This document shows positions 2,910 to 63,293 of a stretch of 64,000 nt of DNA, one piece after another. The notes under the pieces were generated by a model that saw only the letters and a list, made by a program, of their open reading frames with translations, made no database searches and was not told the DNA's origin. Origin of the DNA: Melioribacteraceae bacterium (GTDB lineage: Bacteria > Bacteroidota > Ignavibacteria > Ignavibacteriales > Melioribacteraceae); contig JAIOZI010000021.1 in the NCBI GenBank assembly GCA_021740785.1, positions 824-64,823 of the forward strand. Direction: 5' to 3'. Numbering within the stretch: position 1 is the stretch's first letter; the number at the start of each line of letters is the position of its first letter. The position numbers were made by a program, and so were the translations under genes.

Positions 2910-3044
2910 TTACCAAACTCGAAGTTTCGTTTTGTGTTTTATTTGATTTTATTTACCTATAGTAATAAATTACTATATTTGGATATATTATAGCAGCAAT
3001 TTAGTTAAAATTACATTTAATTCGAATTCATGGTGGAGGAATAA

Positions 3045-4235: not shown

Positions 4236-4300
4236 AATTAACTAAAAAGGGGTTGCTATTGATTTTTTAATTGCGCCCTTTTTTATTTCGGGAGATATCA

Positions 4301-7401: not shown

Positions 7402-7550
7402 TTGATGCTTTATCGGAATTTATTAAACTCTCACCAAACAATCATTTCGAATTATTTTTTTCTAACAGCAATTCAATAAACTGCTGATCTATAAATGTTT
7501 CTAAAAAAGAAAAAGATTTTATACGATTTCGATCCACCCGGATGTTATAA

Positions 7551-8438: not shown

Positions 8439-8518
8439 TCGATTACCAGTTTTAATTGATCGGAATACTAAAATATAAATTTGCGATTTACAAAACAATT
8501 TTTTAAACTTCAATTGTC

Positions 8519-9376
8519 ATGCGGGGAGTTTCAATAATATTAATGATACTTTTGATTAATTCAATTTGTTCCTCACAAATTAATCCCGGGTCGAGGCAAA
8601 TTGCATTATCTCATTCCACAACTGCGCTTTCAAATGATGTCTTCGCAATTTTCAATAATCCATCAGGATTAGCACAGTTAAATTGGCGTGAACTCGGTGT
8701 GTATTATTCCCCGTCCCCCTTCGGATTGAAGGAGTTAGCAAACGGGTATGCTGCATATAACGAACCGTTCGAATTCGGAAATCTTGCAGCCGGATTTATG
8801 ACTTATGGATTTGAACTTTACAGAGAAAATAAATTCCTTCTCTCATTCTCGAAAAGATTTTATGATAACTTCTTTGCCGGAATATCTTTGATTTATCAAT
8901 CACTAAAAATTGAACGCTACGGCAATGACGGTGCATTCAATATGGTTATTGGCGGACTCGCATATTTATCCCCCAATATTCGGCTCGGTTTTTCAATTGA
9001 GAATTTAATGCGGTCAACCTATGGAAATGAAGATGATCAAATTCCGGTCATTTATAATTCCGGTTTGAGTTACAATCCCTTAACGAATATTTCTTTAAAT
9101 ATTTCGGCACAGAAGGAATTGAATTACCCTGCTTCATTTAGATTTGGAATCGAATACAATTTACTTAAATACGTTTATATTCGAAGCGGTATTATGAATG
9201 AACCCGATAGTTATTCTGCCGGGATTGGGATCAATTATCTTTTCTTTAATTTGGATTATGCAGTCTTTACTCACAATGATCTCGGATTAACTCATCAAGC
9301 CGGACTAATAATATATTTCAACGATGATACACCACGTGAAGAAAAAATTAGGCGTCACTTAAATTTAGAAATGTAA
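8519..9376 (+). CDS. outer-membrane beta-barrel protein, PorV/PorQ/FadL-like
   Basis: Signal peptide. N-terminal GSRQIALSHSTTALSNDVFAIFNNPSGLAQL resembles the G.R..alGGa....D.sa...NPAgL plug motif. Alternating beta-strand pattern throughout. Confidence 0.4.
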   Translation: MRGVSIILMILLINSICSSQINPGSRQIALSHSTTALSNDVFAIFNNPSGLAQLNWRELGVYYSPSPFGLKELANGYAAYNEPFEFGNLAAGFMTYGFELYRENKFLLSFSKRFYDNFFAGISLIYQSLKIERYGNDGAFNMVIGGLAYLSPNIRLGFSIENLMRSTYGNEDDQIPVIYNSGLSYNPLTNISLNISAQKELNYPASFRFGIEYNLLKYVYIRSGIMNEPDSYSAGIGINYLFFNLDYAVFTHNDLGLTHQAGLIIYFNDDTPREEKIRRHLNLEM

Positions 9377-48723: not shown

Positions 48724-48850
48724 GATTCTATAATAGATATGATTCTTAAATTTTTCAGCCGATTTTTACCCGATATGTTCCGATGAAATTATTTTTTTAC
48801 GTTATTTTTATTAAATTCATTGTTTCATTCACAAAATTTAATTGGATTAT

Positions 48851-49996
48851 ATGAATTTCGATTTTACTGAAGAACAAAACATGCTGCGCGATATGGTACG
48901 CGATTTTACTGATAGTGAGATAAGACCATTAGCAAAAAAAATAGATGAAGACGAATCTATTCCTGTTAGTTTGATAAAAAAATTAGGAGAAGTTGGATTA
49001 TTAGGAACGGCATTCCCGGAGAAATACGGCGGAGGCGGTTTCGGTGAATTAGGTTACTGCATTGCTCAAGAAGAGGTAACACGCGCCTGCGGATCAACAG
49101 CGGCAATGATCGGGGCTCATCAATCTATTGGAACAAATGCAATTTACATCGGAGGCTCGGAAGAACTTAAAATGAAATATCTGCCGCAGCTTACTTCCGG
49201 TGAAAAAATTGCGGCATTCTGCTTAACTGAAGCCGGCGCAGGTTCCGATTCTTTTAATCTAAAAACAACCGCAAAAAAAGTTGATGATAAGTGGATTATC
49301 AACGGTGAAAAACTGTGGATTACAAATGGTGATATCGCAGATGTGTTTTCTGTTTTTGCCAGGACTGAAAAAGGAATTACGGGATTTGTAATCGATAAAG
49401 ATTTACCGGGTGTGGAAATTGGTCCGCCCGAAAAAAAACTCGGTATCAAGGGAAGTTCCACAAACGCTATCTCCTTCGAAAACGTTGAAGTTCCCGGAGA
49501 AAATATGATAGGTCAGGATGGCAGAGGATTTTTAATCGCGATGAAAACACTTGATGCGGGCAGACTTGGAATCGGGGCATGCTGCGTTGGAGCCGCAAAA
49601 GAGATGCTGGAAATTTCGGTAAATTTTGCAAATGAACGAAAGCAATTTGATCAGCCGATTGCTAAATTTCAGGCAATTCAATTTATGCTTGCTGAAATGA
49701 CAACTGAAATTTATGCCATGGAAAGTATGCTTTATAGAACTGCAAAAAAATATGATGATCAATTGGATACTTCAAAGGAAGCTGCAATCGTGAAATTATA
49801 TTGTTCGGAATCAGTCTCGGAGGTTGCTGATAAAGCGCTTCAAATTCATGGCGGGATGGGATTTTCAAAAGAAATTCCAATTGAGCGATTTTACCGTGAT
49901 GCACGAATATTAAGAATATTCGAAGGTACCAGCGAAATTCAGAAATTAATAATCGGAAGGAAAGTAATTAAAAACAAAGGCAAGTGGAAATTATAA
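48851..49996 (+). CDS. acyl-CoA dehydrogenase
   Basis: MNFDFTEEQ..., CLTEAGAGSD, WITNG, catalytic-base region IFEGTSEIQ. The ORF track opens at TTG 48842. Confidence 0.85.
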   Translation: MNFDFTEEQNMLRDMVRDFTDSEIRPLAKKIDEDESIPVSLIKKLGEVGLLGTAFPEKYGGGGFGELGYCIAQEEVTRACGSTAAMIGAHQSIGTNAIYIGGSEELKMKYLPQLTSGEKIAAFCLTEAGAGSDSFNLKTTAKKVDDKWIINGEKLWITNGDIADVFSVFARTEKGITGFVIDKDLPGVEIGPPEKKLGIKGSSTNAISFENVEVPGENMIGQDGRGFLIAMKTLDAGRLGIGACCVGAAKEMLEISVNFANERKQFDQPIAKFQAIQFMLAEMTTEIYAMESMLYRTAKKYDDQLDTSKEAAIVKLYCSESVSEVADKALQIHGGMGFSKEIPIERFYRDARILRIFEGTSEIQKLIIGRKVIKNKGKWKL

Positions 49997-50746
49997 ATGC
50001 CAGTATTAGTAATACCGTCTATTGACGTTCATCAAAATAAAACCGTTAGAGTTGTTCAGGGAATCCCGGAGCTTAATTGTCCGGAATATAAAAACGATCC
50101 CGTTGAAATGGCAATGATTTGGCGGGCTGAAAATGCAAAGATAATTCATGTTGTAGATTTTGATCACATTCACAATTACTCTAATATCAATCATAATATT
50201 ATTGAAGAGATTTGCGACTCGGTAATTATCCCGGTTGAACTCGGCGGCGGGATACGAAATCTTAAAGATGCCGACGAGGCTTTCAGTCTCGGTGTATATC
50301 GACTTGTAATCGGATCACTCGCATATAATGATGAAAATGAATTTATTAAGATTATTGAAAAATACGGTCCAAAAAAAATTTCCGCTGCAATTGATGTAAT
50401 TGATGATGAAGTTGTAGTACGCAGAAGAAGAATTAAAACCGGGATTGATCCTTTAATTTATGCGAAAAGACTTGCGGAATTGGGAATAGAACGTTTAATT
50501 GTAACCGACGTTAAAACGAATGGTATGATGCTCGGTCCGAATATTGAATTATCGGAAAAGACTGCTGAAGCCTCGGGATGCAAAGTAACACTCTCAGGCG
50601 GAATATCCGGTCTTGAAGATTTATTAAGAGTAAACGCAGCAACGGACAAGGGAATTGATTCGGTAATTATCGGTCGGGCATTATACGAAAATAAATTTTC
50701 CTGTCAGAAAATTTGGCGGGTAGCTGAATCGGGATTATTTAACTGA
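49997..50746 (+). CDS. HisA/HisF-family (beta/alpha)8-barrel protein, outside any his operon in this window
   Basis: VIPSIDVHQNKTVRVVQG, VVDFD, ELGGGIR, GSLA, SGGI: HisA-like phosphate-binding pattern. ATG abuts the upstream TAA. Confidence 0.6.
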   Translation: MPVLVIPSIDVHQNKTVRVVQGIPELNCPEYKNDPVEMAMIWRAENAKIIHVVDFDHIHNYSNINHNIIEEICDSVIIPVELGGGIRNLKDADEAFSLGVYRLVIGSLAYNDENEFIKIIEKYGPKKISAAIDVIDDEVVVRRRRIKTGIDPLIYAKRLAELGIERLIVTDVKTNGMMLGPNIELSEKTAEASGCKVTLSGGISGLEDLLRVNAATDKGIDSVIIGRALYENKFSCQKIWRVAESGLFN

Positions 50747-50758
50747 GGATAAAATATA

Positions 50759-51316
50759 ATGGCTTCTTCAAATAATTTAATTAAGAGGAGCAGTTTTTGG
50801 GCAAACTTATTTAAATCACCAACCGAAAAAAGTGACCTTGAAAACGTATTGAAATCAATGCCTCCTTTTTGTGAACTTAATAAAAAGTATATTAAGGCAC
50901 TTATTAAGATAGTTCACAACCGTGCGTTTACAAAGGATGAATTTATTTTCCTTCAGGGCGACCCGGGAATTGGTTTATACGTAATTCAATCAGGCTCGGT
51001 TGTTATTCGACAAAATACCGGGGATAACAATACAATAGACCTAGCAACATTCAACCGGGGTGATTTCTTTGGAGAGCTTGCGTTAATGGATGATGAAATA
51101 AGATCCGCATCTGCTATTGCTTTGTCGGATTCGGAAATCGGTGTAATATTTAAACCGGATTTGGATGAGTTTGTTGAAAAATATCCCGATATTGGTATAA
51201 AAATTTTGAGAGGGATTGCACATATTATCACAAAGAGACTTCATAGGCTGAATGACGACTATCTTACTCTTTACATAAAAACATTCAATAATAATTCGGA
51301 GAACGTCGATGTATAA
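50759..51316 (+). CDS. cyclic-nucleotide-binding domain protein
   Basis: FLQGDPGIGLYVIQSGSV...FGELALMDDEIRSASAIA is the cNMP-binding (Crp-type) beta-roll. Confidence 0.75.
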   Translation: MASSNNLIKRSSFWANLFKSPTEKSDLENVLKSMPPFCELNKKYIKALIKIVHNRAFTKDEFIFLQGDPGIGLYVIQSGSVVIRQNTGDNNTIDLATFNRGDFFGELALMDDEIRSASAIALSDSEIGVIFKPDLDEFVEKYPDIGIKILRGIAHIITKRLHRLNDDYLTLYIKTFNNNSENVDV

Positions 51317-51779
51317 AATTCAAAAAATATTAGTCCCGATTGATTTTTCCGATTATTCCAAGGGCGCCTTAAAATATGCAGTTGATTTTGCAAAGCATTT
51401 TGGAGCCAAGATGTACCTGGTTTATGTAGTCGAACCAATGATTTATCCTGCAGATTTCAGTTTGGGTCAGGTATCAATTCCCTCCGCTGATTTTGAAACA
51501 AACAAAAGAGCCGAAGAGGAATTAGAAAATTTGGCAAAAAGTGAAATCCCGGAAAGTATTGAAGTTGTAACGGTAATAAAAACCGGGAAACCCTTTATCG
51601 AAATCATTGAATATGCCGCTGAGGTGGATATTGATTTAATAATGATCGCAACTCACGGGCATACCGGCGTTGAACACATGCTATTCGGCAGTACAGCGGA
51701 AAAGGTTGTTAGAAAAGCCCCATGCCCTGTGATGACACTTCGTGAACCGATAAAAGGATTCAAGTTTCAAGGCGAGTAA
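51309..51779 (+). CDS. universal stress protein (UspA family)
   Basis: ILVPIDFSDYSK, DLIMIATHGHTGVEHMLFGSTAEKVVRKAPCPV: ATP-binding-type USP. Confidence 0.85.
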   Translation: MYKIQKILVPIDFSDYSKGALKYAVDFAKHFGAKMYLVYVVEPMIYPADFSLGQVSIPSADFETNKRAEEELENLAKSEIPESIEVVTVIKTGKPFIEIIEYAAEVDIDLIMIATHGHTGVEHMLFGSTAEKVVRKAPCPVMTLREPIKGFKFQGE

Positions 51780-52582
51780 TGAGTCGGATTTTGGATTTAA
51801 AACGGTTCCCGGATTTTGAGAATCTGAAAATAATATTGGATGATAATACCTCCGGGAGCAGCGAGCTCCTTTATAAAATTCAAAATTACCTGCACCAAAA
51901 TGCCGGTAATATTTCTGATTTAAATTCCTTTCTGTATCAGCTCAAAGATTATTTCAATGAGTTTCAGGTTATCACTTCTTTTTTAGATCGATTAATTGAA
52001 TCCGGAGGAAATTCGCTGGATAAAATAATCTCGGATTCTCAAGAGTTTTCTACTAAATGTTATCAAAGAATTTTCGATAATTTTAATAAGAACCATGATA
52101 TCCCGGAGAGGATAATAACAATTTCAAACAGTACAACCTTATTCGAGATATTCAAATTATTTTATAATGTAACGCAAAACCTGGAAATCAGAGTTTGTGA
52201 ATCCAGACCACAATTGGAAGGAAGAATTTTCAGCAGTAAACTTGCTGAACAAGGAATTGCCGTAAAATTAATTACTGAAAGTCAAATACCGGAATTTATT
52301 GTTGATTGTGACTGTGCAGTTATTGGGGCTGATAAAATTTTACCTGATAATAGTATTGTAAACAAAGTTGGAAGCCGGCTTCTAGCAATAACTGCAAATC
52401 ATTTTTCCGTACCGTTTTTTGTTTTTGCGAGTAAAAATAAAAATTCTGATTCAGATCACTTTGTGCCGGATGAAAGGAATACTGATGAGATTTGGGTCAC
52501 AAAAAATAATTTTATTTCAATAAAGAATTATTATTTTGAAACAGTCAATTCCAAATTGATTACCGAGATAGTGCAGGAATAA
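51779..52582 (+). CDS. eIF-2B alpha/beta/delta-family (sugar-phosphate isomerase-like) protein
   Basis: ESRPQLEGR, GADKILPDNSIVNKVGS: IF-2B family core. Confidence 0.6.
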   Translation: MSRILDLKRFPDFENLKIILDDNTSGSSELLYKIQNYLHQNAGNISDLNSFLYQLKDYFNEFQVITSFLDRLIESGGNSLDKIISDSQEFSTKCYQRIFDNFNKNHDIPERIITISNSTTLFEIFKLFYNVTQNLEIRVCESRPQLEGRIFSSKLAEQGIAVKLITESQIPEFIVDCDCAVIGADKILPDNSIVNKVGSRLLAITANHFSVPFFVFASKNKNSDSDHFVPDERNTDEIWVTKNNFISIKNYYFETVNSKLITEIVQE

Positions 52583-52624
52583 CTTTTATTTAATTGGTCG
52601 TTGTAATAATTATGAGGTTTGCTC

Positions 52625-53818
52625 ATGAGTAAAGCTCCTGATATACTAATTTTCTCCGATGGGAACGGTACTTCCGCAATTTATGAATCATTTGTTTCGA
52701 TGGGTAATTATTATGTTCATTTTGCTCAAAAAGATGATTCCGGGTTGAACAAACTTAATGCCCATGAATTTGATTTGATACTTGTTGAAATCTCTCAACC
52801 ATTGATGTCTGAAATACTTTTTATCGAACGAATTAGATTGATCAATGCTTACGTGCCCGTTGTAATTGTATCGGAATATTTTCGTGAGACGAAGAATTCG
52901 GTTTTTGGGAACAAAATATCCCAGTTCATCGATAAACCGCTCACGCTCGATAAACTTTATTCAACAATTCAAGATACACTCAACCCCGATGCGGAATCGA
53001 AAAAATATTTATCATCAGAAGAAGCTGCAATTTCCGACAAGAAATTATTAGTCCTTTACGAATTTTCAAAGAGACTCAATTCAATAAACGATTTCGATCA
53101 ATTACTGATGTCAATTATTGAACTGGCAACCGATGCATTAAAAGCCGACCGCGCCACGGTATTTGTGCTTGATAAGAAAAAAAATGAGCTTTGGTCTAGA
53201 GTCGGAACTGGAATTGAACGTAAAGAAATTAGATTTCCGAAAACAACAGGCATTGCCGGACAAGTAGTTTGCAGCGGCACCTCATTGATAATCGACGACC
53301 CTTACAGCAGCCCGCTTTTTAACCGGGAAGTTGATATTAAAACAGGATACAAAACAGAAAGCCTGCTCTGTGTTCCGATGCGCAACTTAAGCGGAGAAAT
53401 TGTCGGGGCATTTCAAGTGTTGAATAAAGAGAACGGGAAATTCAGCACAGATGATGAAATGTTTCTGAGCGCTATGGCTGCCAATGTTGCTATTGCTTTG
53501 GAGAATACGCTTCTGCATGATGACTTAAAATCAAAATATGAAGAAACACAAAGATTGTATGACGATCTTTACACCGCACAGAAAATGATTGTTTGGGATA
53601 CCAAGCATTCAACTATTTCAGAGATACAGGGAATGATCAACGAGATAAAACAATATGATGCCGTTCCGACGCAGGTTAAAAAGTTAATTGAAGCAAACGG
53701 CAAAGATAATGAAGTCGCCGATAAACTAATGAAGCTTCGGGCAAACAACGATAATATGTTCAAGCGTATTAATGCCAGGTTAACAGAAATGTTGAAAGAG
53801 TTGGAAACTGCATCATAA
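52625..53818 (+). CDS. atypical receiver (REC) domain plus GAF domain regulator with C-terminal coiled coil
   Basis: REC-like N-terminus with KP at beta5, but E where the phospho-Asp is expected (FDLILVEISQP). GAF core DRATVFVLD...GIAGQV...SLLCVPM. ATG at 52625 follows GAGG. Confidence 0.6.
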   Translation: MSKAPDILIFSDGNGTSAIYESFVSMGNYYVHFAQKDDSGLNKLNAHEFDLILVEISQPLMSEILFIERIRLINAYVPVVIVSEYFRETKNSVFGNKISQFIDKPLTLDKLYSTIQDTLNPDAESKKYLSSEEAAISDKKLLVLYEFSKRLNSINDFDQLLMSIIELATDALKADRATVFVLDKKKNELWSRVGTGIERKEIRFPKTTGIAGQVVCSGTSLIIDDPYSSPLFNREVDIKTGYKTESLLCVPMRNLSGEIVGAFQVLNKENGKFSTDDEMFLSAMAANVAIALENTLLHDDLKSKYEETQRLYDDLYTAQKMIVWDTKHSTISEIQGMINEIKQYDAVPTQVKKLIEANGKDNEVADKLMKLRANNDNMFKRINARLTEMLKELETAS

Positions 53819-53869: not shown

Positions 53870-55471
53870 TTAAAATCTTTTACTGATGTTTAAATAATAT
53901 CGGTTAAAGCTCCTTGCTTCTTCGAATGTGCCTTCATAGTTAAGAGAGAAATAAATTTTATAAATCAGCTCGCTTCCAATATCAAAAAAGAAAATGTTTT
54001 GAGCCAGCTTCTGATTTGTTTTTGTAAAAGTGTAGTCAACTCTTCTATACCCGGAACCAACATTTAACATTCCATCAAAAATATATTTATTGAATCTAAT
54101 TCCGTACGTGCCGCCATCAACATAAGAAGTCTGTAGAAAATTTAAATTTACGGTTGAGGATAAATCAACATACGGGATTCTTGAATAAGTTGTATACAGC
54201 CCATAATTTCTTGTTGAGCTTCTATCCCCGGATTGAAAACGATAACCAAATGAAGCGCCGACTGTAAAATATTTGAAAGGTCTGACATTTGTTCTAAACC
54301 GTAAACCCTGTCTTGTTTCGGCATCCAATAAACTATCTGCATAGCTTTGATATGTTTCGTAATAAATAACATTCTTTCGTGCATCGTATGAAGTGGTAAA
54401 AGACAACCATCTTTCAGGTGAATACCTGACGGAGAGATACAAACTGGTAAATTTAACTTTACTCTTCCCTACCCCGTTTCTCTTTTCATAAAGATCAAAT
54501 TCCGAAGAAAGAAATAAATGAATATTATTGATAATATTATTATTGTGCTGGAAATATAAAAAGCGTCTATCGGTATTAAAATTATTAGTCTGCTCCATCA
54601 CTGCGAGATTATTCTTCATAAACTTATTACTTACAGTATCTTCCCTTGAAACAAAAACTCCGTACTGGAACATCTTAATGTTGTATCCGTAATCCGAATA
54701 ATTTGGACGTGAGCCAACCACACCGCCAAACAAATAATTCTTACTTCTATGCTCATATTGAATTCCGTCGATGGAACCGATGTTTGCAATATTGGGATTA
54801 ATTCTCCTCCCGAAATAAAGTTTATTTTCAGTATTAAAATCATAACTGAGAGATAAATTATAAATTCTCAGCGCGTCACCAAAATTGCTTTTAACATCCT
54901 GCCACTCTTTATTTCTGTAAGAGAATCGAATATATGAATCGAAGGAAAATTTGGAACCGGAAACATTATCACCGTTCAGTGCAATTAAGTATCTCCAACG
55001 CTGGTCGTATTTACTATTAGAATAATTATTAATAGTCGAATAAGAAGAGACACTCACTCTTCCGTCAATATCACTTCTCTTTCTCGTAAGTTGTTTTCTC
55101 GGCGTAGTTATTTTTTCAATTATCCGGTCTTCAGTATTTTTTATTGAATCTTTATCGGTTTCTGCCAAATCATTTCGTTTATAAAACTTAACAAAAAAAT
55201 CATCGTCAACATTTACATCAATTTCAATAATTTTTTCAGCAGCGCAAGAGCGCGAAGAGATAAACTTTGCAATTAATGCAGGTGTAAATGTTTGTCCGTC
55301 TTTTTTATACAGTGTGTCATTTTGATTTATAAATGAAGTGTTGTCGAATTTCAAATAAACATATTGCGAAGAGAAATATGTTACTTTTCCGGGGATCCAA
55401 TCGTATCCTTCCTGGGCATCTACTTTTATAAATATTAATACAAACGATATGAGAAATAAAATCTTGTTCAT
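53870..55471 (-). CDS. predicted outer-membrane beta-barrel, last gene of the multiheme cytochrome operon
   Basis: Signal peptide MNKILFLISFVLIFIKVDAQ. About 120-aa N-terminal domain, then Tyr/Arg/Asn-rich alternating strands. C-terminal ...YYLNISKRF (terminal Phe). The ATG overlaps the stop of the 46-heme gene (ATGA). Confidence 0.6.
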   Translation of the reverse strand: MNKILFLISFVLIFIKVDAQEGYDWIPGKVTYFSSQYVYLKFDNTSFINQNDTLYKKDGQTFTPALIAKFISSRSCAAEKIIEIDVNVDDDFFVKFYKRNDLAETDKDSIKNTEDRIIEKITTPRKQLTRKRSDIDGRVSVSSYSTINNYSNSKYDQRWRYLIALNGDNVSGSKFSFDSYIRFSYRNKEWQDVKSNFGDALRIYNLSLSYDFNTENKLYFGRRINPNIANIGSIDGIQYEHRSKNYLFGGVVGSRPNYSDYGYNIKMFQYGVFVSREDTVSNKFMKNNLAVMEQTNNFNTDRRFLYFQHNNNIINNIHLFLSSEFDLYEKRNGVGKSKVKFTSLYLSVRYSPERWLSFTTSYDARKNVIYYETYQSYADSLLDAETRQGLRFRTNVRPFKYFTVGASFGYRFQSGDRSSTRNYGLYTTYSRIPYVDLSSTVNLNFLQTSYVDGGTYGIRFNKYIFDGMLNVGSGYRRVDYTFTKTNQKLAQNIFFFDIGSELIYKIYFSLNYEGTFEEARSFNRYYLNISKRF

Positions 55472-58400
55472 CAGTTCTTATAAATTTCCTTCAATTTTGG
55501 TTTTAGTAATTTATCACCTTCATCCCCGTTAGGATGACAGTCGTAACAAGCGGTACTTTCATATACATAATCAGCAACTCCGCTATGTTCATCATCCATC
55601 TCGGTCCTGCTATGTTCATGACAATTTATACATTCGTAAAAAGTGAAATCAGCTTGGTTAACATGGCAATCGGCGCAGGTATTCCATTCACCATTATGTT
55701 CACCGCTGTAAATTGGGAAATAAGCGGCATCATGTTCAAAGGTTGACGGCTCCCACGCTATCTGGGAATGACAATCTTGACATGTATGAGGAAAGAATGC
55801 TGCTAAATGATTCGGATCAGTTGCAGTATTATAATCTTCCTCATGACACCCGACACATTCCACCGGTGTATTGTTATAATCATTATTATGACAATCAATA
55901 CACTGATTTGAAATTGATGCATGCGCGCCGACTAACTCAAAAAATGAATTGTGAACTTCAAAGGTTGCAGGCTTCCAATCCGGTTGAGTGGAATGACACT
56001 GTGAACAATCATTTTCAAGTCCCAGTGAAATATGATCAGGATTTGTTGTTGAATTAAAATCAGTTTGATGACAATCAAAACAAACAGTTGAAGTACCGGT
56101 GAATCCGTTCTCATGACAATCACCGCACTCCATAATTTCAAGATGCGCACCAGTTAAAGGGAAATCAGTTTCATTATGATCAAAATGAGTTTCCTCCCAA
56201 TTAACCGGGGAATGACAAGTACCGCACTCGGTTGGGAAACCTTGAGCTAAATGATCTTCAGTAGCATTGTAATCTTCCTCATGGCAGGCAAAACATTCCG
56301 ATGAAACAATTTCCACCGTACCGACATGACAGTCGGAACATTGAATCTCAGCGTGTTGACCAAGTAATTCAAAACCGGTTTCAGCATGAGAAAATTCCGA
56401 AGGTATCCATGCTGTAGTGTTGTGGCAGTCCTCGCATACCTGTGATAACCCGGCATTAACATGATTAGGATTTACCGCAGATGTGAAATCCGTTTCATGG
56501 CATGAATTACAATCGCTGGCAGTACCGGAATAAACTTCCGTATGACACTCACTGCACTGAACATCAACATGTGAGCCGGTCAGCGGAAAATCTGTTGTTG
56601 CATGATCGAATGAAGTCTCTTCCCAGCCTATTGAGGAATGACACATTTCACAATCTGTCGGGAAATTTTGAGCAATATGATTTTCCGCGGTATTATAATT
56701 TTCTTCATGACAGCTTAGGCACTGCGGATCTGCCGTTGTAGTGTTGCCTTCATGACAATCACTGCATTGTTGAATTTCAGCATGCTTACCGGATAACTCA
56801 AAACCTGTCACCGCGTGAGTAAACTCTGAAGGTGCCCAATTGGTTGTATTGTGGCAGTCTTCACATACCTGTGATAACCCGGCGTTAACGTGATTAGGAT
56901 TTACAGCAGACGTAAAATCCGTTTCATGGCATGAATTACAATCGCCTGCAGTTCCGGAATAAACTTCTGTATGGCAGTCACTGCATTGAACATCAACATG
57001 TGAGCCGGTCAACGGAAAATCTGTTGTTGCATGATCGAACGAAGTCTCTTCCCAACCTATTGCGGAATGACACATTTCACAATCTGTCGGGAAATTTTGA
57101 GCAATATGATTTTCCGCGGTATTATAATTTTCTTCATGACAGCTTAAACACTGCGGATCTGCCGTTGTAGTATTGCCTTCATGACAATCACTGCATTGTT
57201 GAATTTCGGCATGCCTGCCGGATAGTTCAAAACCGGCTGCTGCTGTATGATTAAACTCTGAGTTTGCCCATTCCGTTGATGAATGACATTCATCGCAATT
57301 TTTAGATATTCCTGCCGCTGCATGATCCGGTATTAATGCAGTATTATACGACTCAATATGGCATGTCTCACATTCCGACGAAGTCCCGCTGTAACCCGAA
57401 ATGTGGCAGCCGGAACAATCTGTTGTGGAGTGAGCTCCCTCTAACGGGAAAGCTGACGAAGAATGATTAAATGCACCGTCTTCATCACCATTGGGATGAC
57501 ATGCGAGACATTCGGAACTTTGATACACATAACCGGATACTCCGCTGTGTTCATCGTCCATATCGGTTCTATTGTGCTCATGACAATTAATACATTCGAA
57601 AATAGAATAGTTTGTCGAGGAGGTATGACAGTCTGAACAAGCATCCCACTCCCCTCTGTGTTCACCGCTGTATATTGGAAAATACGAAGCATCATGATTA
57701 AAAGTTGATGGTTCCCATGCAGATTGAGAATGACACTCGGTACATTCAACCGGGAAATTTGCCGCCGCATGATTAGGATCGGAAGTTGAATTGTAATCGC
57801 TCTCATGACAACTAAAACATTCTTCGACCGTATTTACATAATCTCCTTGATGACAACTCTCACAATCGGAAATTATTGATGTATGAACTCCGACTAAATC
57901 ATAATGTACCGGGTAATCAGCAGGCTGCCATGCATTCTGATTGTGACATGTTGTACAGTCGGTCTCAAAATTTAATTCCACGTGATTTGGATTGGCAGTC
58001 GCATTAAAATCATCTTGATGACAGTAGGTACACTCTTCAATCGTATTAACATAATCGGAAACGTGACATGAATTACAATCACCTAAAATATCGAGATGAA
58101 TACCAGTCAAATCAAAATGAACAGGATAACTTGCAGGCTGCCATCCGGGATTAGTTGTATGACATTCAATACAATTAGTAGAAAAAGAAAGTTCTACGTG
58201 ATTTGGATTAGCGGTGCCTTCAAAATCCGGCTGGTGGCACGAATAGCAATCCGAAGATAACCCGGTAAATGTTGAAGTTTCATGACACTGGTAACAATCA
58301 GTAATATTATGCCCGCCGGTTAACGGGAAAAAATCATGAGTGATGGATGCAAAACTCCACTCTCGCTGGTCGAGCGAATGACATTCAGTACAATCTTGAG

Positions 58401-58920
58401 AAAAACCTGAAGCAGCGTGATTCGGATTATTTGTCGCGACATAATCTTCCCTGTGGCAATCGATACAATCAGTACCAATTGGTTCAAATCGTAATCCGCT
58501 GGATGAAACATGGCATTGTCCGCAGTCGGCAGTATTATGATTCCCGATCAAAGGAAAGCGTGCAAGCTGATGGATTTCTGTTATATTCTTCACAACCCAT
58601 GAGGATGGGTCATGACAGGTTTGGCATTCTTCACCCAAAGTATTTTCATGTACATCGGTATGACAACCGCTGCACATCATATCCACACCGGAAAAAACTA
58701 ATGATTCGTGACAGTCAATGCAATTTATGCTTTTGTGCTGCCCTTCCAGTTCGAATAAAGTTTGAGTGTTGTGATCGAATTTTAGATCTAGTGTTTTTAT
58801 CGCCCATGTTTCAGTTGTGTGACAAGTCGAACACTCGAGATCAAATCCGTCTCCGTGCGGTGACTGTGCATACATGACCGCAGAAAAAATTAATATTATT
58901 AAGAATGACAAGTTGCGCAT
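55471..58920 (-). CDS. giant multiheme c-type cytochrome (46 CxxCH motifs by my count)
   Basis: Signal peptide ...VMYAQ. 46 CxxCH in 1149 aa, organised as doubled-CxxCH units with recurrent NPNH and FPL(T/I)G motifs. Contains an internal tandem duplication. Confidence 0.9.
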   Translation of the reverse strand: MRNLSFLIILIFSAVMYAQSPHGDGFDLECSTCHTTETWAIKTLDLKFDHNTQTLFELEGQHKSINCIDCHESLVFSGVDMMCSGCHTDVHENTLGEECQTCHDPSSWVVKNITEIHQLARFPLIGNHNTADCGQCHVSSSGLRFEPIGTDCIDCHREDYVATNNPNHAASGFSQDCTECHSLDQREWSFASITHDFFPLTGGHNITDCYQCHETSTFTGLSSDCYSCHQPDFEGTANPNHVELSFSTNCIECHTTNPGWQPASYPVHFDLTGIHLDILGDCNSCHVSDYVNTIEECTYCHQDDFNATANPNHVELNFETDCTTCHNQNAWQPADYPVHYDLVGVHTSIISDCESCHQGDYVNTVEECFSCHESDYNSTSDPNHAAANFPVECTECHSQSAWEPSTFNHDASYFPIYSGEHRGEWDACSDCHTSSTNYSIFECINCHEHNRTDMDDEHSGVSGYVYQSSECLACHPNGDEDGAFNHSSSAFPLEGAHSTTDCSGCHISGYSGTSSECETCHIESYNTALIPDHAAAGISKNCDECHSSTEWANSEFNHTAAAGFELSGRHAEIQQCSDCHEGNTTTADPQCLSCHEENYNTAENHIAQNFPTDCEMCHSAIGWEETSFDHATTDFPLTGSHVDVQCSDCHTEVYSGTAGDCNSCHETDFTSAVNPNHVNAGLSQVCEDCHNTTNWAPSEFTHAVTGFELSGKHAEIQQCSDCHEGNTTTADPQCLSCHEENYNTAENHIAQNFPTDCEMCHSSIGWEETSFDHATTDFPLTGSHVDVQCSECHTEVYSGTASDCNSCHETDFTSAVNPNHVNAGLSQVCEDCHNTTAWIPSEFSHAETGFELLGQHAEIQCSDCHVGTVEIVSSECFACHEEDYNATEDHLAQGFPTECGTCHSPVNWEETHFDHNETDFPLTGAHLEIMECGDCHENGFTGTSTVCFDCHQTDFNSTTNPDHISLGLENDCSQCHSTQPDWKPATFEVHNSFFELVGAHASISNQCIDCHNNDYNNTPVECVGCHEEDYNTATDPNHLAAFFPHTCQDCHSQIAWEPSTFEHDAAYFPIYSGEHNGEWNTCADCHVNQADFTFYECINCHEHSRTEMDDEHSGVADYVYESTACYDCHPNGDEGDKLLKPKLKEIYKN
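56377..57234 (-). repeat. 2 x 429-bp near-identical tandem duplication inside the 46-heme cytochrome gene
   Basis: Units 56806..57234 and 56377..56805 each encode 143 aa with 6 CxxCH. I count 8 aa differences between the units. A diverged third unit follows below 56376. The antisense ORFs 56502..56741 and 56931..57170, offset by 429 nt, mirror this duplication. Confidence 0.9.
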
Positions 58921-60377
58921 TTAAATTCGTCGTATTTATAATTAATAAAAGAACCGGCATCAATTTGTACCGGTTTATGACATTGGCTGCATTGTAAATT
59001 TTTGTGTGCCCCGTCTAAAGGAAATCTTGTTGCTGCATGGTCGAATAATAACTTTTTCCATCCATTTGGTGAATGACATCGATCACAAATAGTTTTCCCT
59101 TTTTGTTTGAACTGTCCGAAGTGAACGTCATTATGACAGTCTTCACAAACACTGGTAAGTTCACTGAATACATGGATGATTTTTGATTCATCATCTTCAA
59201 GCAGGTGACATGTTCTGCACTCTACTTTTTGATGATTGCCGACCAGAGCAAATTCAGTCAATGAATGATCAAAATTATTTACTCTCCATGATTCGGATGT
59301 ATGACATTTTTCACATTCATTATTACCGATAAACTCTTTACTAATAGCATCACCATGTATATTTTCATGACATTCACTGCATCTAGTTGATTCAAATGTG
59401 AAGTCCCATTCTTTTTCTGTTTTATGACATTGCTGACATGGAACTGCCAAATGAGCCCCGCTTAAAGCAAAACCAAGCATTGAATGTTCTTGGATAGAAT
59501 AATTAGAAGGTATAAATCCGTTTAATGAATGACATTTACTACAATCGGTAATTACTCCCTCTTTCGTGAACTGTCCCTTATGAAAATCATTATGGCAATC
59601 CGTACATTTTTCATATTTCGGTTTATTGCTTAATCCGCCGATATGACAGCTCTTGCATTCAACTATTATATGTTTACCCTGCAAAGGATAATTAGTTAGT
59701 GAATGATCGAATTCATCCATTTGCTTAATTTGTTTGAAGGATGAAGTGGAATGACATTTTTGACAATTACTTCCAAACTTATTGTTGTGTACATCGTTGT
59801 GGCATGGGGTACAATTATTAAACTGAAGTCCTTTGAATAATTGGAACTCTTTATCATTACGATTTTCTTTCTTATGACATTTTTCACAATCAACATTAAT
59901 GTGGGAACCGGTAAGCTTATAAGCGGCTTTATCGTGGTTGAATTTGGGAGCAGGTCTGAACTTTTCAGAATTATGACATGACTGGCAATCATTTGAAAGA
60001 GTACCTTGATGATAATCCTCATGACATGATGAACACTCTTGATTGAGTCCGAGAAATGTACCGGTGCGTTTCTTTAATTCCTGGTCATCAATAAATTTTG
60101 GGATGTGACAATTTTCACACTTTACGGAAGAGTGTTTCCCTTCCAACCGGTAGCCGGTTTTATCATGATTGAACGAATCTTGATCAAAACGGGCAATTTC
60201 AAATTTTCGCCCATGATGCTCACTATGGCATTCAAAACACTTTTTCGATGTTACTTCATTATTAGAATGATATCCTCGATTAGCATCAGCTAATTTTTTG
60301 ATTTCGGTGTGACAGTCCAAACATTTGGAATCTAGAACTTCTTTACCAAGCTCATGACACTTTGTACAATTGCTCAT
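58899..60377 (-). CDS. multiheme c-type cytochrome (20 CxxCH); true start probably upstream at 60485 (ATT)
   Basis: 20 CxxCH in 492 aa. The listed Met has no signal peptide, but the in-frame upstream sequence encodes one; see the finding on 60378..60503. The 3' end overlaps the 46-heme gene by 22 nt. Confidence 0.85.
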   Translation of the reverse strand: MSNCTKCHELGKEVLDSKCLDCHTEIKKLADANRGYHSNNEVTSKKCFECHSEHHGRKFEIARFDQDSFNHDKTGYRLEGKHSSVKCENCHIPKFIDDQELKKRTGTFLGLNQECSSCHEDYHQGTLSNDCQSCHNSEKFRPAPKFNHDKAAYKLTGSHINVDCEKCHKKENRNDKEFQLFKGLQFNNCTPCHNDVHNNKFGSNCQKCHSTSSFKQIKQMDEFDHSLTNYPLQGKHIIVECKSCHIGGLSNKPKYEKCTDCHNDFHKGQFTKEGVITDCSKCHSLNGFIPSNYSIQEHSMLGFALSGAHLAVPCQQCHKTEKEWDFTFESTRCSECHENIHGDAISKEFIGNNECEKCHTSESWRVNNFDHSLTEFALVGNHQKVECRTCHLLEDDESKIIHVFSELTSVCEDCHNDVHFGQFKQKGKTICDRCHSPNGWKKLLFDHAATRFPLDGAHKNLQCSQCHKPVQIDAGSFINYKYDEFKCATCHS

Positions 60378-60466
60378 TCCCTCGAGGTTTTCGTGAGCAG
60401 TAGTCAGATCCCCCGGGGATATTTGAGCAATAAGTTGGTAAGATAATAGTAAAATAATATACAGAA

Positions 60467-61801
60467 TTAATTTCGATGCTTTAATACCGCCTCTCCGAAT
60501 TTAGTAGTTATTGATATTCCGATTTTTTCAAGGAATTTATTCGGCAATTCACCGCCTGCAAAAATATATACTAAATCATTATTAATTTCCGCTATCGAAT
60601 CATCGCTCATCTTCAATAAAACAGTATCATCTTTTACTTCGACTAAATTTGTATTATACATGATTTTTAGTTTACCGGAATCATTTGCAGCATTTACTTT
60701 TTCAAGATTCATTGGTTTAATACGTTTAAAAGATTCGCTTCGATAAGATAAAATAACATGATTCCCTTCATCGGCAAGCAGCATCGCCGATTCAACTGCT
60801 GAATCTCCGCCGCCTACAACTAATATTTTTTTCTTCTTAATTAATTCCGGGTCAAGAAGTTTGTAATAAACCTTTTCCTTATCTTCACCCTTGACGCCCA
60901 ATTTTCTAGGTGTTCCTCTTCTTCCAATAGCCAGCAGAACATGCGAAGTTTTATAACCGGATTGATTCGTAATCACTTCAAAACTATTCGCACTTTTTTT
61001 AATATCAATTACTTTTTCGGATTCTTGAATAACAATTTTATTTTTTTCGAGAACCTCTTTCCACAAATCAATTAATTCTGTTTTACTTGTTTCGTATAAT
61101 TTTACAATTCCATGTGTCGGTAATTCCATGGGTGAAGTCATCACAACTTTTGCCCGGGGAAATGAAAAAACAGTTCCGCCTAAAGTTTCTTGGTCAATAG
61201 TAATAAATTTAAGACCATGTTTTTTTGCGTTGAGGCTAGCGGCAATACCTGCCGGACCCGCGCCAACGATTACCAGATCATATTCATTATTATTTCTTTC
61301 AACCTTCTTTCTCACAATATTATCAACTGCTTGTTTACCCTGTTCAACAGCATTTTTAATTAATCCCATACCGCCGAGTTCTCCAGCGATGTACATCCCG
61401 GGAACATTAGTTTCATACTCCTGGGAAACATGCGGAAGATCGACACCGCGTTTCTCCGTCCCCATTACAAGTGAAATTGCTTCAACAGGACATGCATGAA
61501 AACATGCACCGTGACCAACGCAGCGTGATGCGTTAATTGTTGTAGCCTGCCCGTTTCGTATTCCTAAAATATCTTTTTCCGGGCATGCATTAATACATGC
61601 ACCGCTGCCGATACAAATATCGGAATCTACAACCGGGTGCAGCGAAACCGGCTCGTAAAAACCTTGTTCTTTTGCTTTATTTATTTTTGCTTCTACTTTT
61701 TTTGATGCGGAGGATTTACTTTTAAGATAATACCAAACAATTCCGGAAATCATCAAGACTACGATTAAGTATGCCGCTATATTTTCTAATAGTACTTCCA
61801 A
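60467..61801 (-). CDS. membrane-anchored 2x[4Fe-4S] ferredoxin-domain / FAD-NAD(P)-binding oxidoreductase
   Basis: N-terminal TM helix (IAAYLIVVLMISGIVWYYL). CIGSGACINACP and CVGHGACFHACP. Dinucleotide folds DLVIVGAGPAGIAAS and ILVVGGGDSAVE. Confidence 0.75.
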   Translation of the reverse strand: MEVLLENIAAYLIVVLMISGIVWYYLKSKSSASKKVEAKINKAKEQGFYEPVSLHPVVDSDICIGSGACINACPEKDILGIRNGQATTINASRCVGHGACFHACPVEAISLVMGTEKRGVDLPHVSQEYETNVPGMYIAGELGGMGLIKNAVEQGKQAVDNIVRKKVERNNNEYDLVIVGAGPAGIAASLNAKKHGLKFITIDQETLGGTVFSFPRAKVVMTSPMELPTHGIVKLYETSKTELIDLWKEVLEKNKIVIQESEKVIDIKKSANSFEVITNQSGYKTSHVLLAIGRRGTPRKLGVKGEDKEKVYYKLLDPELIKKKKILVVGGGDSAVESAMLLADEGNHVILSYRSESFKRIKPMNLEKVNAANDSGKLKIMYNTNLVEVKDDTVLLKMSDDSIAEINNDLVYIFAGGELPNKFLEKIGISITTKFGEAVLKHRN

Positions 61802-61804
61802 TTT

Positions 61805-62440
61805 TTACTTTAGTTTTTGTAATGAATTTTTAGCAAGTTCGGCAATTCGCAGATCATCTGTTTGATTTGATAATTCTTCCCAAATCGACCTAGCTTTTTC
61901 TTTATTTCCCTTTGTAGCTGATATAACACCGAGGTTATACTTTGCATTCAAGTTAGATTTATCAATTTCCAATACAATGTTGGTTAATCTTTCAGCTTCA
62001 TCAAATTTTTGCATCCTGTGATTAATAAAAGTCATTGCCATCAGTACATCAATACGTTTCGGATTAACAACCAATATTTTTTTATAATATTCAAGCGCTT
62101 TTTCCGGTTTATGCGCTGAGGCAAGCATTCTCGCATATTCCGATATTTTTACAGTATCCGCCGGGTTTTCATTAATCTCGTTTTCCAATTTATCCATTCG
62201 TTCTTTTACATTACTCATTACATTCGAAGACGAAGGAGTATTATCATCACCCATCATTCCTTTATGAATATCATCATTCGGCATTTCTGAATTACTCATC
62301 TCCTGTTGAGGTTCATCAGAGTTTTCTCCAACACTTAAAATTATTATAACTGCAAAAACTAATAATATCCCGATCATATATATATATAATGGTTTTATTT
62401 TCATTATTTCTCCCTTGTTAAAAAATCCATGTATAACCAA
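61805..62440 (-). CDS. membrane-anchored TPR-repeat protein (NrfG/CcmI-like candidate)
   Basis: TM anchor IYMIGILLVFAVIIILSV (likely start MKIKPLY at 62404), a low-complexity linker, then about three TPR repeats (ALEYYKKIL..., AKYNLGVI...). Confidence 0.5.
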   Translation of the reverse strand: MVIHGFFNKGEIMKIKPLYIYMIGILLVFAVIIILSVGENSDEPQQEMSNSEMPNDDIHKGMMGDDNTPSSSNVMSNVKERMDKLENEINENPADTVKISEYARMLASAHKPEKALEYYKKILVVNPKRIDVLMAMTFINHRMQKFDEAERLTNIVLEIDKSNLNAKYNLGVISATKGNKEKARSIWEELSNQTDDLRIAELAKNSLQKLK

Positions 62441-63293
62441 ATAGAATCGTTACCACAACATGTATTAACATAATAATTAACATTATAATAGCAAAAGGCA
62501 AATGTAAAATATGCCAGTACTTAAAAAACTTCTGCATCGAGCTCAACATTCCTATCCTTCTTTGAAGCAGTAATTTCTTTTTTGCAATTTTTATAACTTC
62601 ATGTAAACTTTCGTCCGAAAGTTTTGCAGTCTTCAATTCATTTTTTAGTGAATTAAAAAATTTTTTCTTCACAAAATAATCTTTTGTAAATGTGGATAGT
62701 GTTTGAATAAATCCGACATTTTTATAATCATCAATCGAAATAAATTCTTCCATCTTCAGAATAAGCGCTTCCGATACTGAAAATTCATCTCTCAATTTAT
62801 TACTCATTTCTTCATTCATCTTTTTTAACTCAGAATAATTGAGAGTCTGCCCCTGCAATGTTCTGGGGATTTGTACATAAATAAATCTCCCAATAACTCC
62901 GCTTAATGCAACAGCGACCATACTGTAAAAACTTACGGAAACGATGCCGCCGAATTTAAATGCAGTGTGATACAAAACTAAAATAGGACCTACGCCGCAT
63001 AGAAAAATGTGCAATTCAAGCCAATATTTCAATGCGCCGCTTCTAACAAATCGTTTACTCCTTTTACGAATCATGTAAATGGAAACACCAAGAAGCATCA
63101 TTAAAGAACCGATTATTCCAAAGCCATGTCCCCAATCACCGCTCGGCTTTAATGTGTTATGCATCGTATCGAAAAATCTTTCTTCAATAGGGGTGAAATA
63201 ATATCCGGCGCCTACCAATGCAATGTAAAGTGTAATTACACTCCCGATTAGGATGAACGAACCTATGTAAAAGTTATGTTGTGCTTTTGTCAT
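62418..63293 (-). CDS. five-TM membrane protein with two H-x13-H helices (di-heme cytochrome b-like)
   Basis: TM3 is WLELH-IFLCGVGPILVLY-H and TM5 is HILH-LPFAIIMLIIMLI-H, each with exactly 13 residues between the histidines. A ~100-aa Lys/Glu-rich soluble insert lies between TM4 and TM5. Confidence 0.5.
   Translation of the reverse strand: MTKAQHNFYIGSFILIGSVITLYIALVGAGYYFTPIEERFFDTMHNTLKPSGDWGHGFGIIGSLMMLLGVSIYMIRKRSKRFVRSGALKYWLELHIFLCGVGPILVLYHTAFKFGGIVSVSFYSMVAVALSGVIGRFIYVQIPRTLQGQTLNYSELKKMNEEMSNKLRDEFSVSEALILKMEEFISIDDYKNVGFIQTLSTFTKDYFVKKKFFNSLKNELKTAKLSDESLHEVIKIAKKKLLLQRRIGMLSSMQKFFKYWHILHLPFAIIMLIIMLIHVVVTILFGYTWIF

Follow-up and report, generated by a model that had tools for sequence, protein, structure and literature searches.

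We analysed a 64-kb window (the whole stretch of DNA presented above, 64,000 nucleotides) from a metagenome-assembled genome (MAG) of the Melioribacteraceae, within the Ignavibacteria, and describe here an operon of six co-directional open reading frames (ORFs) on its minus strand, at positions 53870-63293. From its upstream to its downstream end the operon encodes a protein with five transmembrane (TM) helices (g1), a TPR protein (g2), a flavoprotein with iron-sulfur (Fe-S) motifs (g3), two c-type cytochromes with 20 and 46 heme-binding motifs (g4 and g5) and a predicted outer-membrane beta-barrel (g6). On balance, we favour the interpretation that these genes specify a trans-envelope electron conduit resembling the candidate porin-cytochrome cluster type PCC3, supplied by a cytoplasmic input enzyme of its own. 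Judged by published features, the operon appears to be a variant of PCC3, and what seems new in it is a conserved NAD(P)H-type flavo-FeS partner. A fuller version of this idea is more doubtful, and we put it forward tentatively: the operon may be a complete quinone-independent wire that starts at NAD(P)H, enters the envelope through a split NOX-like input, crosses a fixed 20-heme bridge and ends in a single-polypeptide extracellular heme cable reaching tens of nanometres and lengthening by triheme cassettes (22 to 91 hemes). In that version the system would be mobile (plasmid-borne in Emticicia), would be the main extracellular electron transfer (EET) device of Ignavibacteria, and would re-interpret the proteobacterial PCC3.

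PCC3 was described by He et al. (2017, PMC5566968) as a candidate porin-cytochrome cluster found in Alpha-, Beta- and Gammaproteobacteria and containing a porin, a periplasmic cytochrome (median 21 hemes) and a repeat-rich "extracellular" cytochrome (10-85 hemes, median 34). The inner-membrane protein (IMP) of PCC3 and PCC4 has about 300 aa, five TM helices, an SGxxG motif in TM4 and W-x3-H-x13-H in TM3 and TM5, and was likened by the same authors to a di-heme ferric-reductase domain (PMC5566968). Gallionellaceae PCC3 clusters encode 21/24/27-heme and 10-35-heme proteins (Hoover et al. 2023, PMC10734462), and for an example from the Burkholderiales 24 and 49 hemes are reported, along with indels of heme cassettes (PMC7399161). 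The initial annotation of our DNA had set the design apart from known systems and missed its closest precedent. The g1 protein has every motif of the PCC3 IMP, and the other published defining features, a cytochrome of about 21 hemes, a variable repeat cytochrome and an adjacent barrel, are all present. The two systems also share a low number of residues per heme (~22-25) and heme numbers that change in steps of three (21/24/27 there, 3n+1 here). They differ in that the IMP here is accompanied by a membrane-anchored Fer4 plus TrxR-fold flavoprotein and often by a TPR protein, whereas PCC3 descriptions comprise four genes and assume a quinone link; in that the periplasmic cytochrome has 20 hemes rather than the proteobacterial mode of 21; and in that the host belongs to the FCB group and is an organoheterotroph, where PCC3 hosts are proteobacterial Fe(II) oxidisers or symbionts. 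The supplements of He et al. mention no flavoprotein and no FCB taxa in PCC3, we found no published link of PCC3 to Ignavibacteria or to a flavoprotein, and the literature on the genomes and omics of Melioribacter roseus and Ignavibacterium album does not describe the cluster.

The arrangement is widely conserved. The g6 family numbers 1248 proteins in the collection searched, all of them named "hypothetical", and our synteny sample consisted of the best 80 of 483 barrel loci in species-representative genomes, almost all of them from Ignavibacteria; 60 of these loci, with at least 8 kb of upstream sequence, were informative. Synteny across genomes, which the initial annotation had offered as a check, proved strong: g1, g3, g4, g5 and g6 are collinear, all on a single strand, in 55 of the 60 loci, and at a would-be 56th (L006) a 91-heme cytochrome pushes g1 beyond the fetched flank. 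Two loci (L050 and L060) have a 43-heme cytochrome and the barrel alone among housekeeping genes, and because such stand-alone pairs occur we take g5 and g6 to be the porin-cytochrome core. These patterns support the view that the operon genes form a conserved functional unit in which barrel and large cytochrome are an obligate pair. Two MAGs carry two copies of the barrel plus large cytochrome (L020/L046 in CAVUOL01, L076/L079 in JABMPI01), and the L046 copy has a truncated flavoprotein gene and neither a 5-TM nor a 20-heme gene. Beyond the Ignavibacteria, the cultured Cytophagales bacterium Emticicia oligotrophica DSM 17448 carries the module on its 100-kb plasmid pEMTOL02 (L090, NC_018749.1 78197-89995, EMTOL_RS21085-21110) in the order ccsA, IMP (47% identity), g3 (61%), 23-heme cytochrome, 40-heme cytochrome, barrel (36%) and GW-domain protein; this ccsA encodes a fused system II cytochrome c synthase of 1028 aa and lies immediately upstream of the g1 homologue. 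The plasmid location suggests that the module is horizontally mobile, and a tblastn search of plasmids with g4 found it in Emticicia only. Two high-GC metagenomic lineages likewise encode an IMP, a Fer4/Pyr_redox protein and two cytochromes, one with 20 or 23 hemes and one with 46 or 63-plus; the barrel of one of them (L088) is 22.6% identical to g6 (E 5e-16).

The strongest available argument for an NAD(P)H-fed input is a swap of reductases beside the IMP gene. A Fer4 plus Pyr_redox gene of the g3 kind adjoins the IMP gene in Ignavibacteria, in Emticicia and in loci L083 and L088, and in L089 such a gene is found within the same locus, some 3.5 kb downstream of the IMP gene. In an Acidobacteriota MAG (L087) and an Alteromonas macleodii plasmid (L091, NZ_OX335041.1 60559-65278, with six sibling plasmids), the gene that overlaps the IMP gene encodes instead a membrane-anchored FAD_binding_6 plus NAD_binding_1 plus Fer2 reductase that is not homologous to g3, and a multiheme cytochrome gene follows. 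On the Alteromonas plasmid a 252-aa IMP relative (21.5% identity, E 1e-11) stands between this FAD/NAD/[2Fe-2S] reductase and a 7-heme cytochrome; immediately downstream of the set comes a cluster of [NiFe]-hydrogenase and hyp maturation genes. Since two unrelated NAD(P)H-flavin-FeS enzymes share the position beside it, the IMP is probably fed by a cytoplasmic pyridine-nucleotide dehydrogenase, and displacement of one such enzyme by the other is hard to explain unless it is this activity that feeds the IMP. The swap argues for IMP and reductase being a NOX/FRE-like device split into subunits, that is, for a quinone-independent input. No CymA/NapC/NrfH-type gene had been seen in the operon by the initial annotation, and we found none of the NapC/NirT/CymA type there or anywhere in the window. 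The same annotation had envisaged a self-contained flavo-FeS/heme-b input module; the pairing of IMP and reductase and the swap strengthen that idea, whereas the two [4Fe-4S] clusters that were part of it were not borne out (see below).

In NOX and FRE enzymes electrons pass from NAD(P)H to flavin and then through two (or one) bis-His hemes b, stacked across the membrane, to an acceptor at the outer face, with the heme-ligating histidines on TM3 and TM5, and the two-component E. coli Fre-MsrQ system illustrates that the dehydrogenase can be a separate protein. The device proposed here would differ in that g1 has five rather than six TM helices, in the Fe-S domain placed between flavin and heme, and in its acceptor, which would be a multiheme cytochrome chain and not O2, an Fe(III) chelate or MsrP.

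The g1 protein has the five hydrophobic helices and the two H-x13-H helices that were initially annotated, and both pairs, H95-x13-H109 and H264-x13-H278, are invariant in the 26 homologues from which the motif set was drawn. The full motifs are W91-x3-H95-x13-H109 in TM3, S131-G132-x2-G135 in TM4 and W260-x3-H264-x13-H278 in TM5, and the invariant residues are H56, W91, H95, H109, S131, G132, G135, W260, H261, H264 and H278. At E <=1e-3 the family comprises 2773 clusters at 50% identity, and in all remote homologues examined (29-33% identity) SGxxG and the two W-x3-H-x13-H motifs are retained. Having two TM helices that each carry a pair of histidines 13 residues apart, g1 shares a feature of the ferric-reductase-domain and two-heme cytochrome b superfamily. 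Judged by the positive-inside rule, g1 probably has its N-terminus and its RKRSKRFVR loop in the cytoplasm, where the ~115-aa helical insert (~141-255) between TM4 and TM5 would also lie, and the charge distribution would place one pair of histidines near each membrane face, H95/H264 at the inner and H109/H278 at the outer one. Family searches with g1 gave no Pfam or NCBIfam match at threshold, Ferric_reduct included; the weak scores were for PepSY_TM (E 0.19) and DUF4405 (E 7.8), and among the homologues DUF4405 matched 14 of 26 (best 7e-5) and Ni_hydr_CYTB 2 of 26 (~0.1), with weak cytochrome b561 signals as well. A FoxB/PepSY_TM kinship, which the name "PepSY domain-containing protein" used at NCBI might suggest, is not substantiated by the PepSY_TM score. 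An AlphaFold2 model of g1 (pLDDT 76) gave no Foldseek match in the PDB below E 0.8, and a profile search of PDB sequences returned coiled-coil noise only.

The g3 protein was initially annotated as an N-terminally anchored FAD/NAD(P) oxidoreductase with two [4Fe-4S] clusters. The first part agrees with our analysis, which finds an N-terminal TM helix, a Fer4 dicluster domain (Fer4_10, 1.6e-10) and a Pyr_redox_3 domain (3e-45, 155 bits). A Lys-rich segment follows the TM helix, so the bulk of the protein should be cytoplasmic. The nearest solved structures are YpdA/Bdr (7a7b, 1.5e-30), thioredoxin reductases and TrxR-type ferredoxin-NADP reductases (FNRs); the FAD/NAD(P)H domain has the TrxR fold without the redox-active CxxC, and its equivalog scores reach neither the YpdA cut-off (169 against 340) nor that for TrxR (101 against 343). 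The cluster assignment is a different matter, since two CxxCxxCxxxCP motifs would take eight cysteines and the whole protein has six. Its motifs are CxxSxxCxxxCP and CxxHxxCxxxCP, retained in 56 and 57, respectively, of the 58 orthologues compared; in remote homologues the cysteine is back in the first motif and the histidine is kept in the second. Clusters of the [3Fe-4S] type or with Ser/His ligation are, from these motifs, as possible as two [4Fe-4S] clusters.

Both cytochromes have the heme-motif numbers first reported for them, exactly 20 CxxCH in 58899-60377 for g4 and exactly 46 for g5. This richness is not due to chance, since no other ORF of at least 100 aa in the window has a CxxCH. 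With 41 and 96 histidines, g4 and g5 have about two per heme, which is consistent with bis-His ligation, and both have about 25 aa per heme. Each matches Cytochrome_C7 (8.9e-22 for g4, 6e-47 for g5). The nearest solved structure to g4 is the dodecaheme GSU1996 of Geobacter (3ov0, 2.8e-6); g5 has no PDB sequence match, and its score for PF22113, Mtrc-MtrF_II-IV_dom (77.8 bits, cut-off 30), may reflect heme-motif density. Like the "nanowire" cytochrome GSU1996, the operon's cytochromes are polymers of the c7/c3 type, concatenations of triheme c7-like modules at about 25 aa per heme; GSU1996 differs in having 12 hemes, a periplasmic location and no barrel or inner-membrane partner, whereas the hemes number 46 in g5 and as many as 91 in its orthologues.

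Among 62 orthologous loci the two cytochromes behave very differently. The g4 protein has 20 hemes in 61 of the 62, while g5 orthologues have 17-91, with a number of the form 3n+1 (22, 25, ... 91) in 53 (85%). The g5 protein is built of ~72-aa triheme repeats and two "end" modules (CxNCHEH...CHPNGD at 443/474 and 1097/1128, residues ~414-480 and ~1068-1135), of which orthologues have one to five each. Within g5 a tandem duplication has a period of 429 nt, equal to 143 aa or two triheme modules with six hemes (protein repeats 562-704 and 705-846), and two 300-nt copies in register are 86% identical; at the level of sequence this recent duplication shows how heme number changes. The highest count is that of L006 (CAVSWT010000031.1, ~3000-9900), where the large cytochrome is a single frame of 2290 codons with 91 CxxCH, more than the 85 that He et al. 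(2017, PMC5566968) called the largest known; other high counts are 79 (L011) and 70 (L045 and L059).

The 533-aa barrel annotated with its ATG overlapping the g5 stop was confirmed by an AlphaFold2 model and by the junction itself, a shared TGATG with 1-nt overlap. In the model (pLDDT 82, strands by DSSP) the signal peptide is followed by a small beta domain (23-97), then by a linker without order (100-131) and a barrel of 22 strands (135-532); the N-terminal beta domain is conserved, the C-terminus reads ...RF, and the protein is 100% identical to NCBI K9J16_07585. No Pfam or NCBIfam family, MtrB_PioB included, matches g6 at E <=0.01, and MtrB is not among its top 50 Foldseek matches, which are generic large barrels: FimD/PapC usher pores first, then Occ/AlgE and TonB-dependent receptors, at TM-scores of 0.3-0.45. 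With 22 strands g6 falls with usher pores and TonB-dependent receptors, beyond the 16-18-strand diffusion porins. This fold comparison of a model neither supports nor excludes a pore that holds a cytochrome, such as we propose for g5 in g6.

The gene pair can also be set beside better known conduits. As in MtrCAB, MtoAB and PioAB, a cytochrome gene lies directly upstream of a coupled barrel gene, and the order cytochrome-cytochrome-barrel is that of mtrC-mtrA-mtrB. The differences are many: g6 lacks an MtrB_PioB match and has about 22 strands, MtrB having 26; TIGR03508 (DmsE/MtrA decaheme) scores 54 bits for g4 and 59 bits for g5 against a cut-off of 192; there are 20 and 46 hemes here rather than 10 and 10, and no lipoprotein MtrC; and the input in Mtr systems is CymA and quinol rather than a flavo-FeS/heme-b module. 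The logic of a porin with a periplasmic and an outer cytochrome is also that of the Geobacter Pcc system (OmbB-OmaB-OmcB). A "Geobacter-like pcc" has been reported in Ignavibacterium album (IALB_1837-1840), with a 400-aa, 14-heme periplasmic cytochrome (Shi 2014, PMC4245776); that cluster is smaller and its outer cytochrome has atypical motifs, in contrast to the 528-aa, 20-heme and 1149-aa, 46-heme proteins here, in which all motifs are canonical CxxCH. The IMP and the flavoprotein are further additions relative to both the Geobacter and the I. album clusters.

From these features we propose the following path. At the inner face of the membrane, g3 would take electrons from NAD(P)H onto FAD and pass them through its two ferredoxin-like Fe-S clusters to a heme b on the cytoplasmic side of g1 (His95/His264), from which they would move to a periplasmic-side heme b (His109/His278) and on to the 20-heme g4. 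The modular 46-heme g5, paired with the 22-strand g6, would receive them from g4, cross the outer membrane and extend outward over a lineage-specific distance, and g2 would be an accessory periplasmic TPR helper in giant-cytochrome maturation or assembly. Overall, NAD(P)H would be oxidised in the manner of NOX enzymes and independently of quinones, and the extracellular acceptor would be Fe(III)/Mn(IV) minerals, humics, electrodes or partner cells. At about 1 nm per heme, the span of GSU1996, 20 hemes could cover ~20 nm, roughly the width of the periplasm, which fits the invariance of heme number in g4; a cassette-variable g5, free of any fixed distance, fits the part that projects outward.

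Several points weigh against this interpretation. Heme b binding by g1 is deduced from its motifs, with no Pfam match at threshold and no structural match, and the Fe-S motifs of g3 are non-canonical. With no lipobox and no known surface-sorting signal, g5 may not be exposed outside the cell, and in the barrel model the N-terminal domain of g6 might plug the pore. Sideroxydans ES-1 down-regulates both of its PCC3 clusters on Fe(II) (PMC8788666). Finally, He et al. (2017, PMC5566968) proposed a quinone link for IMPs with the same motifs. The last point leads to an alternative that we regard as unlikely, namely that g1 acts like a cytochrome b, as a dehydrogenase of quinol or a reductase of quinone linking the menaquinone pool to the cytochromes, possibly with inward flow for Fe(II) or cathode oxidation, and that g3 has a side role in redox maintenance or in reduction of a periplasm-directed cofactor. 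H-x13-H pairs are established in quinone-reactive cytochromes b as well, and PCC3 is found in Fe(II) oxidisers. Against this, in six lineages examined the IMP gene has as its companion a membrane-anchored flavo-FeS reductase of the NAD(P)H type (next to it or overlapping it in five, some 3.5 kb away in L089), in two non-homologous forms, and the swap between them argues against the quinone-linked role of He et al.; the response of the ES-1 clusters to Fe(II) also counts against such a link or inward flow, as does the literature's description of Ignavibacteria as organoheterotrophs and Fe(III) reducers.

A second alternative, which we judge improbable, keeps both cytochromes in the periplasm, where they would serve as an electron capacitor or as a reductase for soluble acceptors (chelated metals, humic analogues, sulfur species, oxygen or reactive oxygen species) and the barrel would admit the substrate. 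Neither g4 nor g5 has a lipobox or a surface-sorting domain (in g5 no type IX secretion system C-terminal domain was found), the N-terminal domain of the barrel would lie on the periplasmic side, and a variable heme number fits a capacitor, a role that has been suggested for similar cytochromes (PMC7399161). A PCC3-like conduit better accommodates the strict coupling of the large cytochrome to a g6-type barrel, in the stand-alone pairs too, the large-lumen class of g6, and the presence of an invariant 20-heme protein beside a length-variable one, which fits two spatial jobs.

The initial annotation had allowed for extracellular electron transfer in either direction. Electron export through a two-heme relay is electrogenic and dissipates the membrane potential, as in NOX enzymes, and for this reason outward flow from NAD(P)H is favoured and inward flow to NAD(P)+ would be doubly uphill. 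The transmembrane step in g1 would thus be electrogenic outward, making the system a non-conserving electron sink for redox balancing and not a coupling site. Flow in either direction seems unlikely, since inward transfer to NAD(P)+ would oppose both the redox potential and the membrane potential. Electron uptake from a low-potential donor outside the cell, such as Fe(0), a cathode or a syntrophic partner, through g6, g5 and g4 and then g1 and g3 to NAD(P)+ is highly improbable in our estimate: Mtr-type porin-cytochrome conduits run in both directions according to the literature and TrxR-type FNRs are reversible, but an inward two-heme relay would work against the membrane potential, NAD(P)+ reduction would need about -320 mV, and the window offers no carbon-fixation or hydrogenase context.

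The coordinates of the operon's features are as follows.

Table 1. Features of the operon in the 64-kb window (positions of the window).
Feature	Position	Strand	Description
g1	62418..63293	-	291 aa; candidate IMP, 5 TM; candidate di-heme b transmembrane electron carrier
g2	61805..62404	-	~199 aa; one N-terminal TM helix and a probably periplasmic TPR domain; accessory
g3	60467..61801	-	444 aa; membrane-anchored (TM 3-21) flavo-FeS protein, probably cytoplasmic
g4	58899..60485	-	528 aa; 20-heme c-type cytochrome; Sec signal peptide (A|Q); start ATT 60485
g5	55471..58920	-	1149 aa; 46-heme c-type cytochrome; Sec signal peptide (A|Q)
g6	53870..55471	-	533 aa; predicted outer-membrane beta-barrel; signal peptide (A|Q)
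g4 translation start	60483..60498	-	GGAGAGG, 4-nt spacer CGGT, ATT; inside g3 3' end
Tandem duplication inside g5	56341..57069	-	429-nt period

All six ORFs were recovered at the positions first annotated, and two of their starts needed attention. Upstream of its first ATG the g4 frame stays open for another 41 codons, and within this region the ATT after GGAGAGG gives a protein beginning MKASKLILYIILLLSYQLIAQ|ISPGD. The same ATT codon position and Shine-Dalgarno-like box recur in about 20 distinct g4 orthologues that have no ATG, GTG or TTG in the signal-peptide region (loci L004, L005, L007, L010, L013, L017, L018, L023, L031-L034, L038, L047, L052, L055, L058 and L075). We rejected a start at the first ATG, which gives a form without a signal peptide, the orthologues having 525-530 aa; we also rejected a frameshift fusion of g3 to g4, since g3 is cytoplasmic, g4 needs a signal peptide, and the conserved ATT and Shine-Dalgarno-like box explain the open frame. 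A mature N-terminus of the form Q-[ILV]-SPG is almost universal in g4 orthologues. Standard ORF callers will truncate g4-type genes and drop the signal peptide. For g2, the ORF lister chose TTG 62440; ATG 62404, behind the Shine-Dalgarno-like box AAGGGAGA, is the more likely start. With the non-canonical Fe-S motifs of g3, these two starts make three corrections to the initial annotation.

The revised starts also bear on how closely the genes are packed, all junctions having been described as overlapping or at most 15 nt apart. Spacing is 13 nt between g1 and g2 (with the ATG start of g2) and 3 nt between g2 and g3, and g4 and g5 overlap by 22 nt. The description holds for g3 and g4 only with the non-canonical ATT, from which g4 overlaps the 3' end of g3 by 19 nt (stop codon counted), and fails with the first ATG, which would leave a gap of 89 nt. 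A g4 start inside the g3 gene would point to translational coupling of the two. A scan for sigma-70 promoters and terminators, which did not include FCB promoters, was uninformative, with 53 promoter sites where 40 were expected and 6 terminators, just the expected number. The three exported proteins all have predicted signal-peptidase sites of A|Q form (g6 VDA|QEG, 55415-55471; g5 MYA|QSP, 58864-58920; g4 LIA|QIS, 60420-60485) and recall the "Q-rule" described for Bacteroidetes Sec substrates. Downstream, on the plus strand and convergent with the operon, positions 48842-53818 encode acyl-CoA dehydrogenase, His_biosynth-fold, cNMP-binding, universal stress, IF-2B-family and response-regulator-GAF proteins. 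The first five of these also adjoin the cluster in L001, and the response-regulator-GAF gene is extra here; a regulatory link of these neighbours to the operon is possible.

The g2 protein has the single TM helix and TPR repeats that earned it the description of a membrane-anchored TPR protein, with matches to TPR_2, TPR_19 and TPR_1; its TPR_CcmH_CycH score of 25.5 bits is under the cut-off of 42 and does not make it a CcmI/CycH/NrfG-type chaperone. We regard it as accessory because 18 of the 55 collinear loci lack it between g1 and g3. In two genomes a TPR gene lies downstream of the barrel (L032 11674-12282, L075 12924-13532), such that membership in the cluster is kept and position is not fixed. 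The g2 protein is probably a helper in the maturation or assembly of giant apocytochromes, as suggested by the Emticicia plasmid, which has ccsA and no TPR gene, and by the weak CcmH/CycH similarity.

Sediments, aquifers, anode biofilms and anammox or wastewater reactors are rich in Ignavibacteria. These bacteria have repeatedly been suspected of metal or electrode respiration, for which we know of no mechanism. If our interpretation is true, the operon would be their principal electron outlet and the first envelope-spanning conduit in a diderm to bypass the quinone pool. EET would then be an electron sink rather than a form of respiration, which would alter the energy that such cells can conserve. 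The enigmatic 5-TM protein of PCC3 and PCC4 in Fe(II) oxidisers and symbionts would acquire a testable job, and the model for that whole class of systems would change. For bioelectronics, the 3-heme cassettes provide single-chain heme wires in a natural series of graded lengths, and the plasmid-borne copy in the cultured Emticicia oligotrophica DSM 17448 (pEMTOL02) makes genetic analysis of the system feasible.

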